From Thermotogota bacterium (GTDB taxonomy: Bacteria > Bipolaricaulota > Bipolaricaulia > UBA7950 > UBA9294), in NCBI GenBank assembly GCA_039679545.1, contig JBDKUT010000126.1, positions 1 to 10,602 of the forward strand: a stretch of 10,602 nucleotides of DNA, given 5' to 3'. Position 1 is the stretch's first letter. Each line of letters starts with the position of its first letter. The notes below the pieces were generated by a model, which worked only from the letters and a program-made list of their open reading frames with translations, did not search any database and had not been told where the DNA came from. The position numbers were made by a program, and so were the translations under genes. Below are positions 3,159 to 9,356 of the stretch, in pieces.

Positions 3159-4256
3159 CTAGGCGCCGAGCAGCTCGGCCAGCGCCGCCACGAGCTGCTC
3201 GTTCTGCGTTTCCGTTCCGATCGAGATGCGCAGGAAGTCGGGGAGGTCGTAGCCAACGCACGGGCGAACGATGATTCCCCGCCGCAGGAGCGCACGCTGG
3301 ACGTCGACGGCGTTCGGGCCGATTCGCACCAGGATGAAGTTCGTGTGGCTCTCGGCTTGCTCGAGACCCAGTCGGTCGAACGCCTCGCGGAGGAATCGGC
3401 GTCCCTTCCGGTTCTCACCTATCGTGAAACGCACGAACTCGTCATCCTCGAGCGCCGCGATCCCCGCCGCCTGCGCCAGGACGTTGACCGTGAACGCCGG
3501 CTTGACCTTGAACATCGGAGCGATGGTCTTCGCATGCCCGAACCCATACCCCAACCGAACGCCGGCGAGGCCGTACACCTTGGAGAAGGTCCGCAGGACA
3601 AGCACGTTCTCCCGCCCCTCACGCACGTAGGCAAGGCCGTCCGGAAACTCGTCCGAGTCTGCCATCTCCGCGTACGCCTCATCCAAGACGACGAGAACGC
3701 GGTCGGGGACAGCGGCGAGGAACCGATCGATCTCGCCTGCCGTCGACATCGTTCCGGTGGGATTGTTGGGGTTGCAGACGAAGACGAGCTTCGTCTTCGG
3801 AGTGACCGCGCGAGCCATCGCGTCGAGGTCGATGCGGTGGCCGGACGCAAGTGGGATCTTGATCAGAATCGCCCGCATCGCGTGGGCGTAGATGTCATAG
3901 ATCGGGAACGACGAGCGGCTGGTGATCACCTCGTCGCCTTCGTCGAGGTAGGCCATCGACGCGTGAAGGATCACGTCGTCGGCGCCGTTTCCGACAGCAA
4001 TCTGGTCGAGGGCGAAGCCGAAGTGCCTGGCCAGAGCGCTGCGAAGGTCGTAGCTTGCGCCGTCGGGGTAGAGGTACGCGTCCGCGAGCGCGTCCCGCAT
4101 CGCCGCGAGCGCCTTGGGCGAGACGCCGAACGGATTCTCGTTCGACGCGAGTTTGACGACGTCGTGAAGGCCGTACTCGCGCTCCACCTCGCTGATCGGC
4201 TTTCCCGGAACGTACGGCTGGATCTTCTCCAGGCCGCGCTGCGGACGAATCGTCAT
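3159..4256 (-). CDS. hisC: Histidinol-phosphate/aromatic aminotransferase family (PLP)
   Basis: YVPGKP, KLASNENP, NPNNPTG, DEAY, RTFSKVYGLAGVRLGY. ATG at 4256 follows a GGGAGG SD and overlaps the upstream stop (ATGA). Confidence 0.92.
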   Translation of the reverse strand: MTIRPQRGLEKIQPYVPGKPISEVEREYGLHDVVKLASNENPFGVSPKALAAMRDALADAYLYPDGASYDLRSALARHFGFALDQIAVGNGADDVILHASMAYLDEGDEVITSRSSFPIYDIYAHAMRAILIKIPLASGHRIDLDAMARAVTPKTKLVFVCNPNNPTGTMSTAGEIDRFLAAVPDRVLVVLDEAYAEMADSDEFPDGLAYVREGRENVLVLRTFSKVYGLAGVRLGYGFGHAKTIAPMFKVKPAFTVNVLAQAAGIAALEDDEFVRFTIGENRKGRRFLREAFDRLGLEQAESHTNFILVRIGPNAVDVQRALLRRGIIVRPCVGYDLPDFLRISIGTETQNEQLVAALAELLGA

Positions 4257-6397
4257 CGACTGCCTCCCCACTCTCTTGTTGGTGACGCGTTGCGCCTCAC
4301 GGCGCGCGCGTCTCCTACCACGAGCCCAAGCTCACCAAGGAACACAGGGTTCAAGTCCAACTCCTCGAGATCGGTGTACCGGAATGGAAGCCGGGACACG
4401 TCCGCAACGAGGACTGCAGCCACGTTGAGATCTCGGGGCGCGGCTCCTCGCGCCCCTTGCAGGATCGCGGCGCCGCGCAGCTCGTCGAGCATCTTCCGTG
4501 CCTCGGCGGCGCCCACTGGTGCGACGCGAAGCGACACGTCACGGAAGACCTCGGTGTACACGCCACCCAGGCCAACGGCGATCACCGACCCGAACTGCGG
4601 ATCGTGCGACAGCCCGACGAGGAGCTCGACCGCGCCGCGCACCATCGGCGCCGCAAGGACACCGCGAAATGCCTCCCCCCCGATGCGGCGCAGCCGGTCG
4701 AACGCCTCGCGCGCTTCGGCCTCTGTTTCGACGCCAAGGATCACGCCGCCGACGTCCGTCTTGTGCGAGATTCCCGACGCCACAAGCTTCAGAACGATGG
4801 ATCCGCCGAGCGCGCCAACCGCGTCGGCCGCTTCGTTGGCCGACGCCACGAGTCGCCGCTCCGGGGTCGGAATCCCTTCGCCCTCCAGCCAATCGAGAAC
4901 CTCGGGTTCCAGTCCCTCCCCCCTCCACGGCAGACGTTGGCTCTCTCGCTCGGTTTGCACTGCGAACCGCGCACTGCGAACTTCGCACCGCGCGCTCTCA
5001 TGGCGCGCAACCTCCGCGATCACGGTATCGTCAGCCGAAGCGCACAACGCTTCGGCCCTAGCTGTCCACGCGGCGATCCTAGAGATCACGTGGACAGCCC
5101 GCTCCCCTGTGGCGAAGTTCGGCACCCCGCCTTCCTTCAGAACCGGGAGCCCCGTTGCGACCGTCTTCCCCGCCATGAAGCACGCCGCCACGGGCTTGCG
5201 GGTCGCCCGCGCCGCCGCGACGACTCCCCGCGCGATCGGCGCTGCATCGATGTACGGGGTGTTCACGTCGATCGCGAGCGCGGCGTCCGCCTCGTCGAGC
5301 GCCGCCACGAGGGCCTCGCGGTATCCGTCCTCTGTCCCCTGCACGGTGAGGTCGATCGGGTTCGCGAGCGAGCCGAGCGTCGACAGGTGCGGCGACGCCT
5401 GCAGCCCTGCACGGAGCGCCTCGCTCGGGGCCGCCACCTCGAGGCCCGCCGCCTCCGCGGCGTCGGCGGCAAGGACTCCTGGGCCGCCGGAGTTCGTCAC
5501 GATGACAAGGCGCTTCCCACGAACCGGCGGCAGCGTCGTGAACCCGCGACACAAGTCGAACATCTCCTCGACTCCGGCGACGCGGATCGCTCCGCACTGA
5601 CGTAGAGCGGCGTCGTAGACGGCGTCCGACCCGGCGAGCGACCCGGTGTGCGACAGCGCCGCGCGCACCCCCGACAGCGACCGTCCCGACTTGATCACGA
5701 CGAGCGGTTTCACCGCGGTGAGGCGCGCCGCCGCGTCGAGGAACGCGCGCCCGTTCGAGACCGTTTCCACGTAGAGCGCCACGACCTTCGTCTCCACGTC
5801 CGTCGCCAGGACGTCAAGGAAGTCGACGTCGGTGAGATCGACGCCGTTCCCATAGCTCACGAACTTCGAGAACCCCACGCCTTGCTCCTCGGCCCACGAG
5901 AGGACCGCGCCGCCGAGCGCGCCGCTCTGCGACACGAACGCCACGTCGCCCGACGGAGGCCGCGTCTCGAGCGTCGGGAAGAGGCGAGCCTTCGTGTTCA
6001 CGATCCCGGCGCAGTTCGGCCCCACGATTCGCAAAGCGAATCGTTCAGCAACTTGCTGGAGAGCTTGCTCTCCAGCTACGTTGCCAACCTCGGAGAACCC
6101 GGCCGTGAGGACGACGGCGACCTTGGCGCCGGCGCGGCCCGCGTCCTCGATCACGCCCTGCACGGTGTCCGCCGGAGACGCGACGACGACGAGGTCGGGA
6201 GCTTCGGGGATCTCGCCGATCGATCGAAAACCCGGGACGCCAAGTACACCTTGCCCTTTCGGACCCACGACCGACACGCGGCCGAAACCGCCGCCGAGAA
6301 GTTGCTCGATCAGCACGCAGCCGAGCTTTCCCGGCGACGCCGAGCCGACGACGGCCACGGACCTGGGTTCGAACAGCGCCTGGACCCAAGACATCAC
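4253..6397 (-). CDS. ADP-forming acyl-CoA synthetase (acetate-CoA ligase family), fused alpha/beta
   Basis: PRSVAVVG, GPNCAG, SQSGALG, SHTGSLAG (phospho-His), TNSGGPG, NPIDL; ATP-grasp motifs HKTDVGGV, DPQFG, ELDLNP. Confidence 0.93.
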   Translation of the reverse strand: MMSWVQALFEPRSVAVVGSASPGKLGCVLIEQLLGGGFGRVSVVGPKGQGVLGVPGFRSIGEIPEAPDLVVVASPADTVQGVIEDAGRAGAKVAVVLTAGFSEVGNVAGEQALQQVAERFALRIVGPNCAGIVNTKARLFPTLETRPPSGDVAFVSQSGALGGAVLSWAEEQGVGFSKFVSYGNGVDLTDVDFLDVLATDVETKVVALYVETVSNGRAFLDAAARLTAVKPLVVIKSGRSLSGVRAALSHTGSLAGSDAVYDAALRQCGAIRVAGVEEMFDLCRGFTTLPPVRGKRLVIVTNSGGPGVLAADAAEAAGLEVAAPSEALRAGLQASPHLSTLGSLANPIDLTVQGTEDGYREALVAALDEADAALAIDVNTPYIDAAPIARGVVAAARATRKPVAACFMAGKTVATGLPVLKEGGVPNFATGERAVHVISRIAAWTARAEALCASADDTVIAEVARHESARCEVRSARFAVQTERESQRLPWRGEGLEPEVLDWLEGEGIPTPERRLVASANEAADAVGALGGSIVLKLVASGISHKTDVGGVILGVETEAEAREAFDRLRRIGGEAFRGVLAAPMVRGAVELLVGLSHDPQFGSVIAVGLGGVYTEVFRDVSLRVAPVGAAEARKMLDELRGAAILQGARGAAPRDLNVAAVLVADVSRLPFRYTDLEELDLNPVFLGELGLVVGDARAVRRNASPTREWGGSR
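4954..4995. repeat. Six degenerate heptamers in frame in the synthetase linker
   Basis: tttgcac tgcgaac cgcgcac tgcgaac ttcgcac cgcgcgc (42 bp, 14 codons). Confidence 0.65.
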
Positions 6398-7008
6398 GCG
6401 CGCCCTCCGTCAAGAGCCTTCTCGCCTGAGCGGAACGCCACGAGGTTCGCGTCCGCCGCCCGCGGCCACCGCGCAGCAATCGTCTTTTCCACGGCGTCCG
6501 CCCCGATGAGCTCGGACAGCACCGTCGCCGCGACGAGCGCACCGAGCGTGAAGACATTCGGGGACGCTGGCTTCCCGCCGACTGTGGGGCACAACGCCGG
6601 GTCGAGGAGGATCGGACGGGCTCCGGTCGCCGCGATCGCCTCGAGAACCCGCTCGCGGGTCGGGTACTCGTCGACGCCGAGCATGACGCCCGTCGGCTCC
6701 CAGACCGAGTCGTAGAGCACGAAAGCGCCTCCCGGCTTCGCGAACGCAAGACCTTTCAACGCCTCTGAACGCTCCATCGCCACCACCGCGTCCGCGCCGC
6801 CGACGCGGATCCTCGGGCCTGCGTCGCCCGCGCCGAGGCGAAGCTCGGCCTTCACGAACCCGCCGCGTTGCGCCATGCCTTTCGTCGGGGAGAACATCGC
6901 CTCGACGCCGCCCGCCGCGGCCGCGTCGAGGAGGATCTCGCCGATCGTCAAGACTCCCTGACCGCCCACGCCGATCAGGACAACATCACACCTAGTCGCA
7001 CGCGTCAC
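6394..7008 (-). CDS. iorB: Indolepyruvate:ferredoxin oxidoreductase beta subunit
   Basis: IGVGGQGVL, GMAQRGG, ERSEAL and NVFTLGAL motifs; GTGA overlap with the iorA stop. Confidence 0.9.
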   Translation of the reverse strand: MTRATRCDVVLIGVGGQGVLTIGEILLDAAAAGGVEAMFSPTKGMAQRGGFVKAELRLGAGDAGPRIRVGGADAVVAMERSEALKGLAFAKPGGAFVLYDSVWEPTGVMLGVDEYPTRERVLEAIAATGARPILLDPALCPTVGGKPASPNVFTLGALVAATVLSELIGADAVEKTIAARWPRAADANLVAFRSGEKALDGGRA

Positions 7009-9356
7009 GGTTGGCCTCCACGTCCCTTGTTGAAGCCCACTCTCGCCGGCTTCGACCCCAGCTGCTCACAGCTGACGTTCGGTGGGCAGCCCAGAGCGTG
7101 AGTAGGACAGGCCGTCGCGCACAGTCCGCATCCGTTGCACAGAGCCGCGTCCACCGTGATCCTCTCTCGGCCAGCAGAACCGGACGGTCCGGGCACTCGG
7201 TTCTGCCCTAACTGCTCGGCACCGTCGCTCGCCGAACAGCCAAGGGCCGGGCAGCCAGTCACTTTGATGCACCGCTTGCACAGCACGCACTTCGCAGCGT
7301 CGAAGGCGACTGCAGCAGCGGCGCCGTGGCGACGCGCCTGAATCGCGCACTCGCGACGGGCAAGAACAACCTTCACTCCCGGTTCTCTCAGGCCGTCGGC
7401 GAGAACGGTCGTCATCGCGGGCAGGTCGTAGGGATCGACGATGTCGAACCGATCGGCGCCAAGGGCGGGGAGGATGCGGGCGAGGTCGATGCGCCGACCG
7501 CCGGCCTGGAACGCGTCGTCCGTGCCCGGGTTCACCTGCATCCCCGTCATGGCGGTCCAACCGTTGTCCATGACGACGAGCGTAAGCGGCACGCGCCGTT
7601 GCACGGCGTTCAGGAGGCCCGGCATCCCTGCGTGGAAGAACGTCGAGTCGCCGATCGTGGCGATGACCGGAGTCTTGATGCCGGCGTGAACGTAGCCCTG
7701 CGCCAGGGAGACGCTCGACCCCATCGAGACCTCGTTCCATATCAGCTCGAACGGCGGGTTCATCCCGAGAATCGTGCAGCCGATGTCGCCGGTGACCATC
7801 ACGGCGTCCTTCGAGAGGCCCGCCTTCTTGATCGCCGCCTCGATCGCCATGTACGTCCCGCGGTGAGGACAACCAGCGCACACAGTGATGGGGCGGGGAG
7901 CGGGTTCAACGTCACCTCTCCGCCCCTGAGTATCACGAAGTGCGCTGGGGAGAACGGACGCGGTCCGTTCTCCTTTCAGGTCGTCCTCGGGGGGACGACC
8001 GACCCCGGCGCAAACCGTAATTGGCCGTGGAGCAGGCGTGGGCGATGCTCCACGGCTAGCGTCCTCTCTACCCGTTAGGTCTGCGAGGGGGAGAACCGTC
8101 GAAGATGGTTCTCCCTTAAGGTCGTGCTCGCCACCACGACCGGCACCGGCGCACACCGTGATGGGGCGAGGCGCCGCCTCGCAGACTGCGCCTCGCTCTT
8201 TGGGCTCACGGTTTGCGCTAGCGAGAACGGCCTTCGGCCCTTCTCGGCGCACAGGTGTGTCTTGGAGGGCAACCGATAGCCCCTCCACAACCTCGTCCAC
8301 CCCATACTCCCCGAGCCGCGACAGGGTCCCGTCGAGCTTCCCGACGATGCGGGCGTCGCTCTGGATCCGTCGCGCAGCAATCCACAACTCTCGCTCAAAG
8401 AACGGCTCCAGCTCTTCCAGAACAAGGACCGTGCCACAGTGGCGGAGGAGTGTCTCCGCCTCCTCTCGCGGGAAGGGCGTCGTCGCTACAGCCTTGAGGA
8501 TCGATACCTGTTCGGGTTTGAGCCCCGTGACGGCGAGCGCTTCGGTCAAGTAGGCGTAGGTCGACCCCACCGCAACGGCGCCGACGCCCCCGGGCTTGCC
8601 CGCGAGTCGAAGATCGTTCAGGCCCATTGCGCGGATCACGCCGCCGGCGACATTCAGCCGCTCGATCAGGTCCCGGTGCTGGTCAAGGCAGATCTTCGAC
8701 CCTGCCTTCGTGTAGCGGGCGATATCGCGTTCGAGGATGACACCACGGCCAAGTGCCGCGCCGCCGGACTCGCCAGCTCTCGTTTCACCGCCAGGTGGTT
8801 CTCCCGGCGCCAGTGTCGGCGGAGCCACTTCATCCGACACCTCGATGCAAGCACTGGTGAGCGCCACCGCCGTCGTGAGGCGAAGGAAGACGGGGGTTCG
8901 CGCCCGCTCGGAAACCTCGAACGCTGCGACGACGAACTCATAAGCCTCCGCCACCGACGACGGCTCGAGCATCGGAAGGTCCGAGAGGAGAGCGAACCCA
9001 CGCGAGTCCTGCTCCGCCATGCCGGCACTTACGCCGGGGTCGTCAACGACCAAGATAACGAGGCCGCCGTTCGTCCCGGAGTAGGCAATCGAGATCAGAG
9101 CGTCGTAGGCGACGTTCACCCCCGACATCTTCATCGTCGTGAGCGCTCGCTGGCCGGCCCACGCCGCACCGGCGGCAATCTCGAACGCGACCTTCTCGTT
9201 CGTCGACCACTCCACGTGTCGACCCGGAAGCTCCATCGTGAGCAGGTGCTCGACCACGCCCGTCGACGGAGTTCCTGGATACCCCGTGACAACTCGCACC
9301 CCTGACCGGAGTGCTCCCAGAGCGACAGCTTGGTTACCCGTGACGATTCGCCTCAT
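7005..9356 (-). CDS. iorA: Indolepyruvate:ferredoxin oxidoreductase alpha subunit, lengthened by in-frame insertions
   Basis: TGNQAVALG, GYPGTPST, EWSTNEKVA, EQDSR, CAGCPHR, GDIGC, GDSTFFHAG..DN (TPP motif) and two CxxCxxC...CP ferredoxin motifs. Confidence 0.93.
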   Translation of the reverse strand: MRRIVTGNQAVALGALRSGVRVVTGYPGTPSTGVVEHLLTMELPGRHVEWSTNEKVAFEIAAGAAWAGQRALTTMKMSGVNVAYDALISIAYSGTNGGLVILVVDDPGVSAGMAEQDSRGFALLSDLPMLEPSSVAEAYEFVVAAFEVSERARTPVFLRLTTAVALTSACIEVSDEVAPPTLAPGEPPGGETRAGESGGAALGRGVILERDIARYTKAGSKICLDQHRDLIERLNVAGGVIRAMGLNDLRLAGKPGGVGAVAVGSTYAYLTEALAVTGLKPEQVSILKAVATTPFPREEAETLLRHCGTVLVLEELEPFFERELWIAARRIQSDARIVGKLDGTLSRLGEYGVDEVVEGLSVALQDTPVRREGPKAVLASANREPKERGAVCEAAPRPITVCAGAGRGGEHDLKGEPSSTVLPLADLTGREDASRGASPTPAPRPITVCAGVGRPPEDDLKGERTASVLPSALRDTQGRRGDVEPAPRPITVCAGCPHRGTYMAIEAAIKKAGLSKDAVMVTGDIGCTILGMNPPFELIWNEVSMGSSVSLAQGYVHAGIKTPVIATIGDSTFFHAGMPGLLNAVQRRVPLTLVVMDNGWTAMTGMQVNPGTDDAFQAGGRRIDLARILPALGADRFDIVDPYDLPAMTTVLADGLREPGVKVVLARRECAIQARRHGAAAAVAFDAAKCVLCKRCIKVTGCPALGCSASDGAEQLGQNRVPGPSGSAGRERITVDAALCNGCGLCATACPTHALGCPPNVSCEQLGSKPARVGFNKGRGGQP
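7872..8246 (-). repeat. Three in-frame tandem units each ending in APRPITVCAG, built of stem-loops
   Basis: APRPITVCAG is encoded at 8145-8174, 8004-8033 and 7872-7901 (periods 141 and 132 nt). The spacers share DLKGE and VLP. Confidence 0.9.

Follow-up and report, generated by a model that had tools for sequence, protein, structure and literature searches.

An in-frame array of hairpin modules repeating the APRPITVCAG codons in the linker of an iorA-like gene from Bipolaricaulota

Why should a peptide that leads into a conserved iron-sulphur (Fe-S) cluster motif stand three times in one gene, spelled each time in different codons and facing each time a complementary arm of its own? The question is raised by a stretch of 10,602 nucleotides (hereafter the window), which is the entire 10.6-kb contig JBDKUT010000126.1 of a 2.35-Mb metagenome bin (assembly GCA_039679545.1; 163 contigs, 93.6% complete, 3.6% contamination). 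The peptide is APRPITVCAG, and it is repeated in an iorA-like gene on the minus strand, whose database homologues are labelled Candidatus Bipolaricaulota. An earlier note on this DNA proposed an in-frame structured element, or a process that duplicates a conserved coding site, recodes it and hides it in a hairpin. The present analyses bear out the structured element, find no sign of a special recoding process, and point, with moderate confidence, to modules that were added and lost by recombination between diverged alleles.

Motif copies and hairpin modules in the linker

Translation of the minus strand confirmed the three copies of the peptide and every codon string quoted for them, and only the last copy continues as CPHRG. 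The copies, and the modules to which they belong, are arranged as follows, in the order of translation.

8245..8262, minus strand: possible fourth motif relic, decayed and frame-shifted (translated DTPVRRE); tentative, with an exact 9-mer in common with copy 1 and weak local alignments
8223..8245, minus strand: short hairpin of module 1, of the GAGAA...GTTCTC type (translated EGPKAVL), an inverted repeat
8145..8226, minus strand: two-part hairpin of module 1, 82 nucleotides (nt), formed by the arm (ASANREPKERGA...) and motif copy 1; inverted repeats, covariance-model match of 86 bits
8145..8174, minus strand: APRPITVCAG copy 1, internal, amino acids (aa) 395-404, by translation
8004..8144, minus strand: module 2, 141 nt, with hairpins 8120-8144 and 8089-8115, an arm region and copy 2; from repeats, alignment and RNAalifold
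8034..8072, minus strand: 39-nt segment, missing by alignment in the closest relative, G005; its 11-nt arm (8046-8056) is fully complementary to the opening codons of copy 2
8004..8033, minus strand: APRPITVCAG copy 2, aa 442-451, with the codon choice of the terminal working copy of G005
7872..8003, minus strand: module 3, 132 nt, with hairpins 7979-8000 and 7949-7973, an 82-nt two-part hairpin (7872-7953) and copy 3; covariance-model match of 70.7 bits
7872..7901, minus strand: APRPITVCAG copy 3, the working copy, aa 486-495, followed by CPHRG, by translation
7863..7871, minus strand: CPH codons of the CxGCPH cluster motif, by translation

The copies differ from one another at 7 (1 and 2), 4 (1 and 3) and 8 (2 and 3) positions, and every one of these differences is a synonymous third-position change, with none at codon positions 1 and 2. 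The Gly codons that close them are GGT, GGG and GGT. In the internal copies the cluster motif stops short of its second Cys and its His, and the gaps between copies are open frames of 47 and 44 codons, with no stop after the putative take-off codon. The modules form a head-to-tail tandem array with a shared architecture and three shared helices. A repeat search returned a direct repeat of 93 nt, 73% identical at a spacing of 141, and GCCGGT stands twice in tandem at the joint between motif and module; Tandem Repeats Finder reported nothing in the region, because the units are too diverged. The view that this is no plain tandem duplication thus holds in part: one module type is indeed arrayed head to tail, and what sets the array apart is that its modules are old and diverged.

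Most of the arms claimed previously were found again in an inverted-repeat search, at 7873-7889 / 7932-7948 (17 nt, 82%), 7890-7900 / 7916-7926 (11 nt, 91%), 8024-8034 / 8046-8056 (11 nt, 100%), 8149-8161 / 8206-8218 (13 nt, 92%) and 8166-8179 / 8183-8196 (14 nt, 86%). One claimed pair, 8009-8020 with 8075-8085, was not recovered, and by eye it has one mismatch and a one-base bulge. The pairing of each copy with its own arm was supported by duplex energies, in which the own copy was the best partner for all three upstream arms, by a small margin for arm 3 (-44.4 for copy 3, -42.4 for copy 1). The module 1 arm at 8208-8218 is also perfectly complementary (11/11) to copy 2 at 8008-8018 and has one mismatch to its own copy 1; this silent mismatch is recent, as copy 1 of G005 still has the matching codon. 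The short hairpins of modules 2 and 3 listed above, and that at 8223-8245 upstream, are additional to those noticed before.

The RNA fold of 7860-8260 was better than that of any of 100 dinucleotide shuffles (z -8.6). Against shuffles that preserve both the peptide and the codon set, the control by which the hairpins were to be judged, the region reached -211.6 kcal/mol compared with -167.7 +/- 7.0 (z -6.3, 0/200 as good); the same shuffles gave z values of -0.8 to +1.5 for gene windows clear of the linker. A search of Rfam at E up to 1 returned three chance rows only, far below gathering scores (mir-515 on both strands and flg-Rhizobiales). Three other readings of the structures were set aside: a terminator role of the short hairpins on the plus strand, since the T run is not conserved; an origin as an inverted triplication (copy, inverted copy, copy), which the order of arms and short hairpins does not fit; and an internal start at the Val codon, since many relatives have GTT or GTC.

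Covariation, reading frame and restriction to iorA

On the sequences compared, the linker of hairpin modules is a feature of one Bipolaricaulota family that extends beyond this genome. The distance from LEELEP to CPHRG is about 85 aa in canonical IorA (Anaerolineae and others) and 88 to 188 aa in Bipolaricaulota-type genes, in recognisable pieces; across the family, modules measure 105-141 nt and consist of two short hairpins followed by a long hairpin that ends in the APRPITVCAG codons. Motif hairpins fit their own codons, beating synonymous recodings at z > 2, in 28/62 long-linker units, as against 7/92 short-linker units.

The 82-nt hairpin could be aligned without gaps in 16 units, 15 of them distinct and two of them from the window. 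Its two-helix structure pairs 80.7% of cells, compared with at most 42% when the partner is slid. Among the 15 distinct sequences, cells changed on both sides numbered 54 against 20.5 +/- 3.4 in shuffles (0/500 as high), a significance that is overstated, as this control is blind to relatedness. All silent motif positions covary. At column 58, opposite the second Pro-codon position, the pairs are AU in six units, CG in three, GC in three and UA in two, and opposite the Thr codon they are CG in five, GC in five, AU in two and UA in one; with four pair types at one position, a single inherited change cannot explain the covariation. The hairpin genes have diverged considerably, with a mean identity of 0.65 at downstream third positions, 0.62 in the arm and 0.42 in the loop. 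In the outer helix, the silent motif base pairs with the first base of an arm codon, so that the linker peptide follows the pairing of the nucleic acid: it reads ASAN, ASTD or ASAH and then R, G, S or C, depending on which synonymous base the motif carries. Independently of this analysis, RNAalifold found three helices in 8 whole modules, with 12/29 pairs compensated. A second hairpin class, with a shorter arm and a 24-nt gap, gave a weaker signal in its 9 units: 22/27 silent pairs against 14 +/- 3, a value that some permutations reach.

Taken together, the folding and the covariation support the earlier proposal of an in-frame structured element that sequesters conserved codons. Such an element has no Rfam counterpart and is apparently new to the literature: literature searches on in-frame palindromic repeats, and on the phylum, the enzyme and repeats together, found no account of it.

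A covariance model of the 82-nt hairpin was searched against 151 genomes. Under strict filters it matched iorA only, in the own genome and in 5/54 sampled genomes of the family, and it matched 0/96 genomes of ten other families. By DNA similarity, 74 family genomes yielded iorA and two chance matches in ordinary genes, and the own genome holds no second copy of the module. These distributions bear on a mobile palindromic element, of the kind of a miniature inverted-repeat transposable element, that inserted in frame with target duplication, which we consider very unlikely. The modules are in-frame, translated palindromic inserts in a metabolic gene, as are the Rickettsia palindromic elements (RPEs; PMC10969869), and a few other sites of the genome have hairpins built on the same stem base. 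However, dispersed copies are absent, and with no copies outside iorA the module is not a dispersed mobile element. An identical target-site duplication is absent as well: the would-be duplication is 30 nt long and differs at 4-8 silent sites, rather than being short and identical, and all modules share a single frame and a single orientation.

Hairpins related in sequence to the short ones are, as a side observation, scattered through the own genome. The pair GAGAAC...GTTCTC occurs 30 times, about 19 being expected, and only some six of these are extended palindromes, so that a large genome-wide hairpin family was rejected; the 227 perfect stems of at least 11 are mostly ordinary. The stem base GGAGAAC ... 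GTTCTCC of the iorA short hairpins recurs at C48:3050-3078, C48:3660-3690, C130:29655-29690, C130:29759-29795 and C64:13620-13650. One such hairpin is translated in frame (KGEPPRAVLQ) between what are apparently two fused oxidoreductase subunits; the remaining ones lie between genes and could be terminators. Another intergenic hairpin (C2:24255-24335) has a stem like the linker modules of the type ACGLWPV ... QATSHxPQA in other Bipolaricaulota; it is the sole instance in the genome, its CGLW-type pattern matched 0/205 loci, and the QATSH-type linker peptide of relatives had 0 matches in the own genome. In iorA genes of other phyla (L096, L097, L185 and L130), short tandem peptide repeats lie in a different loop, around GKLDG, such as a repeated PSAVGPR in L096 and NAECGMR-like repeats in L185.

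Deletion between the repeats would leave a canonical IorA, as the earlier note pointed out, and strong hairpins follow each motif copy. On one reading, therefore, the modules are excised from the RNA, or the ribosome bypasses them by moving from one matching codon to the next. This seems exceedingly unlikely. A scripted reading found 154/160 fetched loci free of stops from LEELEP to CPHRG; of the remaining six, two proved stop-free by eye and have variant motifs, two run off the end of a contig, one is masked, and the stop in the last lies outside the linker. Hence no readable linker contains a stop or frameshift, and the module lengths are multiples of three; with linkers stop-free and in frame, excision and bypass are left unsupported. 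A stop codon does lie within the conserved LEELEP of an otherwise intact iorA (L195), which may be a sequencing error or a dead gene. Bypass of the gene 60 type requires an untranslated gap, with a stop directly behind the take-off codon and a landing codon that matches it. It was rejected here, as no stop follows, the Gly codons are GGT, GGG and GGT, and the gaps are open frames. Inteins exceed 130 aa and have terminal Cys/Ser and His-Asn, and self-splicing introns have a ribozyme core; both were rejected, the modules being 44-47 aa without such ends and Rfam having returned neither an intron nor a ribozyme.

Copy number, mosaic genes and the origin of the array

Among 144 distinct linker DNAs drawn from three collections, 135 have one motif copy, eight have two, and the window alone has three. 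At least two copies were present in 20/120 best protein hits, a list enriched for multi-copy forms because the query contained the repeats. The close relatives form a series of one (P0003, 83% protein identity), two (G005, 85-88%) and three copies (the window), and alignment with them, which the earlier note had called for, places the extra 132 nt of the window exactly between copy 2 and CPH; module 3 is missing from G005. Copies have thus been gained or lost at the DNA level among proteins that are 83-88% identical.

The sample from which the bin probably came offers a closer view. Two runs of one study (X1 and X2) contain 95-97% of the stretch's words and are its probable source; they were assembled independently and are represented by contigs only. 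One contig covers 7300-7853. A second, of 201 nt, covers 7824-8024 with 0 differences and holds module 3, both its junctions and the last 21 nt of copy 2. A third covers 8004-8800 with 1 difference and extends 48 letters past 8004; on the minus strand this extension encodes CPHRGTYMAI and differs from the window at 4 positions in 30, all of them silent. The third contig therefore skips module 3, departing from the window at the end of copy 2 and rejoining it about 20 nt past CPH. Word depth is 6.5 in the upstream contig and 4.6 or 3.6 in module 3. These contigs suggest that an allele without module 3, probably the same upstream and different just past the motif, co-occurs in the likely source sample. 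Identity upstream combined with difference past the motif fits replacement by foreign DNA, as opposed to duplication or deletion in place. In an unrelated study, a contig of run X3 covers 8004-8267 without gaps and contains the 39-nt segment 8034-8072; the module 3 part 7912-7962 has no cover in runs X3 and X4, and two RNA runs contain next to none of the stretch.

The same contigs bear on whether the third copy is an assembly artefact, in which two strain variants were strung together through the shared 30-nt motif. The genome is a bin assembled from a metagenome, with 163 contigs and 3.6% contamination; in the likely source runs the assembly graph has a branch at 8004, and no single contig spans 7853-8034 plus both flanks. 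Nevertheless, the 201-nt contig from the independent assembly of the two runs joins, with 0 differences, the CPH-side flank and module 3 to the end of copy 2; each run has one contig only over 8004-8800, so that module 3 shows no second upstream partner; and 8 other loci from several sources carry two-copy genes of the same build. An artefact is therefore quite unlikely.

The silent sites indicate how long the copies have been apart. Copies within one gene are identical at 3.9 of 10 silent sites, no more than between unrelated genes (3.3 +/- 1.6), and they differ at 67/110 silent positions compared with 11/220 at codon positions 1 and 2; the copies have thus long been under peptide selection, apart from one another. 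Low silent identity is expected if copies evolved in lineages of their own and were later joined by recombination, and the special recoding process that had been suggested finds no support here.

Mosaic genes are evident in the family. The iorA of the window has its first 54 bases identical to L135, a middle nearest to G005, and 90 bases past the motif that are 98% identical to L134. Its first edge is sharp: 9303-9356, the first 54 nt of iorA, match L135 at 100%, other relatives reaching 62-79% over these bases, and the next 200 nt fall to 84-87%. Another pair (L119 and L120) is 95-100% alike from the second module onward and 56-90% alike upstream. In L159, the 3' half of the motif and the downstream sequence are as in L055, and the arm fits a different codon set, with 3 silent-site mismatches.

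Internal copies, in turn, show decay. In the 120-protein list, 3/21 internal copies have changes never found in terminal copies, including loss of the Cys. Relatives contain a series of decayed relics, each followed by the next short hairpin, that runs from APRPITVCDAPRE to RPTTVADAPQE and APRPAPSVRRE; the DTPVRRE of the window (8245-8262) is perhaps its last step. Judged from these changes, from this series and from the missing rest of the cluster motif, internal copies appear to be dispensable. As read from the protein alignment, Ala-Gly also precedes the module in relatives with a single module.

Thus, the explanation that we favour, with moderate confidence, is that modules are added and lost at the motif boundary through recombination between diverged alleles, that the copies are former working copies, and that the arms have been kept by paired changes. 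Modules would be gained and lost exactly at the boundary between motif and CPH. One joint would be homologous, in the strongly conserved downstream sequence, and the other would form by short homology at the Ala-Gly codons that close the motif and also precede the module; two such joints would yield in-frame arrays in which all modules are translated as linker. For most of its history, each motif copy would have served as the working copy in one lineage or another, which would explain why the copies share a peptide, have scrambled silent sites, and face arms that match their own codons. Internal copies would be young relics that later decay or are deleted, with gain rather than loss as the direction in the window. 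Complementarity between arm and motif would be kept by paired changes, through template-switch (quasipalindrome) correction, selection on the hairpin, or both. The tandem GCCGGT joint, the mosaic pairs and the co-occurring contig that merges after CPH may be signs of homology-facilitated illegitimate recombination. Homologues of ComEC and DprA are present in the genome; they lend weak support to recombination and say little.

Several points weigh against this explanation. No donor of module 3 was found among 195 loci, the best match being 71% over 97 nt, and donor tracts are hard to see because the downstream sequence is so conserved. The intact core in 18/21 internal copies also fits purifying selection on those copies, and the same junction type (motif, then AG[RSQ]) in many diverged lineages could reflect one old duplication. 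Deletion between copies would yield the same series of three, two and one, and the 120-protein sample is biased to multi-copy forms. In the likely source runs, contigs built at k = 31 give no phase across the identical node of 30 nt, which leaves the co-occurrence of a two-copy allele, and even the link of module 3 to module 2, provisional.

Part of this evidence would also fit an old in-place tandem triplication, in which each peptide copy was kept by selection on the protein, for example for docking or domain swapping. The excess of silent differences within genes, the intact cores and the widespread junction type all agree with it. However, no internal copy has the second Cys or the His that complete the cluster motif; in some the first Cys or more is gone, and there is a graded series of decayed relics; close relatives function with one or two copies; and the breakpoints of mosaic genes fall at the copies. 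We consider this alternative unlikely.

Genomic setting, maintenance of the hairpin and known systems

The gene and its neighbours, all in one operon, are as follows.

7005..9356, minus strand: iorA-like gene, 783 aa, from its open reading frame and translation; Pfam POR_N, a linker, TPP_enzyme_C and two 4Fe-4S motifs
6394..7008, minus strand: iorB-like gene with a POR domain (Pfam PF01558, E 1e-27), adjoining iorA
4253-6397, in the iorA/iorB operon: ADP-forming acyl-coenzyme A (CoA) synthetase, by Pfam
3159-4271, in the iorA/iorB operon: aminotransferase, by Pfam

Homologues of the first gene are annotated at source as indolepyruvate ferredoxin oxidoreductase alpha, and its fusion of POR_N, a thiamine pyrophosphate (TPP)-binding domain and two 4Fe-4S motifs, with the CxGCPH motif at aa 493-498, places it within IorA. 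Together, iorA, iorB, the acyl-CoA synthetase and the aminotransferase make an intact and putatively arylpyruvate-oxidising operon, and it is from this context, the aminotransferase and the ADP-forming acyl-CoA synthetase, that an arylpyruvate activity of the enzyme is predicted. In the solved structure of a 2-oxoacid:ferredoxin oxidoreductase, residue 3 of the beta subunit (5b46_B) aligns at IorA aa 484; APRPITVCAG is thus taken as the start of the beta-like domain, and the part before it as an inter-domain linker. By this alignment, the repeat stretch is the probable linker joining the N-terminal half of IorA to the beta-like Fe-S/TPP domain, and its modules may form a disordered surface loop. 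A second Pro/Gly-rich stretch, APPTLAPGEPPGGETRAGESGGAALGRG at about 8740-8830 (IorA aa 176-205), is unalignable to any of 8 relatives and may be another variable insert.

What keeps the hairpin is a separate matter from how the array grew. The neutral and self-maintaining part of the favoured explanation is rivalled by a functional nucleic-acid element, in which selection preserves the hairpins, and especially the one that conceals the motif codons. Such hairpins may slow the ribosome before the Fe-S/TPP domain, set the stability or processing of messenger RNA (mRNA), or act on single-stranded DNA, with extra modules as by-products or as dosage tuning. The 82-nt geometry is fixed, with no indel in 16 sequences, in a linker that is otherwise unalignable, and the arm positions facing motif bases that never vary keep their pairing in 14-15 of 15 sequences. 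The hairpin survives heavy turnover of its arm and loop (identity 0.62 and 0.42), all three module helices have compensated pairs, and the site is a domain junction, the 5b46 beta subunit start at aa 484.

Set against this, the stems have no sense-strand signature. Single mismatches in deduplicated contexts were G.T in 7 cases and A.C in 17, the opposite of what an mRNA helix would lead one to expect; these counts (raw, A.C 25 and G.T 8) are few and related, and support no more than the absence of a sense-strand bias. L159 tolerates three simultaneous mismatches. By our reading of the protein alignment, the long hairpin has been deleted in relatives, where stubs such as ASNAG remain ahead of the next module. 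Most of the phylum is without the hairpin, given the matches, under strict filters, in 5/54 sampled family genomes and 0/96 genomes of other families, and short-linker iorA genes do without it too (7/92 units at z > 2, against 28/62 long-linker units). On balance, a functional element is possible and rather doubtful.

Template switching would need no function: the motif would serve repeatedly as template for the arm, and the arm as template for silent sites of the motif, with replacements in the working motif being purged. This fits the lack of a G.T excess over A.C on the sense strand and the tolerance of mismatches in L159. Nevertheless, the fixed geometry, the almost perfectly conserved arm bases opposite the invariant motif bases and the deep persistence of the hairpin point to selection, and weigh against the neutral part of the favoured explanation. 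All told, we give a selected element a low though appreciable probability. We suggest, tentatively and with low confidence, that the 82-nt hairpin could be a new kind of selected intragenic element, in which the codons of an essential Fe-S motif serve as one strand and the linker peptide is forced to follow. A selected hairpin might act ahead of the cofactor domain as a site of programmed pausing or of processing, or it might be an antisense spare for template-switch correction of the motif, and the modular array might then be its means of spreading between alleles.

In either case, the locus is a natural instance in which base pairing, rather than protein function, dictates part of a protein, with silent changes in a motif mirrored in the residues of a linker. 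It also shows that a long hairpin can last over an essential coding site through deep divergence, and that a linker can lengthen into an orderly row of such modules. A hairpin that does no more than maintain itself would be a field example of intragenic template-switch correction; one under selection would belong to a class of intragenic elements so far unrecognised, in a phylum without cultured members. For metagenome bins more generally, "recoded" peptide repeats should first be read as recombination scars and checked for strain mixtures.

Known systems share single features with the iorA array. In homology-facilitated illegitimate recombination, one joint lies in conserved sequence and the other at a few shared bases, leaving a diverged duplicate beside the incoming copy; the iorA array differs in that its joint would have formed repeatedly in frame at the same two codons and given an orderly array, with the mechanism inferred here. 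In translational bypass, as in phage T4 gene 60 and the byps of yeast mitochondria, an insert stands between matching codons of an open reading frame with a hairpin at its start, and the gaps are untranslated and contain stops. The iorA modules resemble such inserts in their matching flanking codons and their hairpin and differ in being stop-free multiples of three. In the RNA of human immunodeficiency virus 1 (HIV-1), structured RNA at protein domain junctions has reportedly been proposed as a ribosome pause; the iorA hairpin is likewise a very stable structure at an inter-domain linker, unlike the viral case in that its mismatch pattern does not favour the sense strand.

Imperfect palindromes are reportedly hotspots of template switching, from quasipalindrome work in Escherichia coli. 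When replication switches template, reverse-complement copies can arise and stems can be mended in one step (Monttinen and Loytynoja 2022, PMC8794818). The hairpins described there share with the iorA modules a reverse-complement copy beside its source, multi-base paired changes and no excess of G.U on the sense strand (PMC8794818). In iorA, the reverse-complement repeat does lie beside its source with paired multi-base changes. Unlike template-switch hairpins, the iorA strand is a strongly selected coding motif in which only silent sites follow, the arm is translated, and the module multiplies in tandem. RPEs are palindromic inserts of about 100-150 nt that are translated in frame in metabolic genes and tolerated by the protein (PMC10969869). 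As described there, they form dispersed families with many copies in unrelated genes (PMC10969869), whereas the iorA module was found in iorA only, always occupies the same site and frame, and carries the neighbouring codons in copy.

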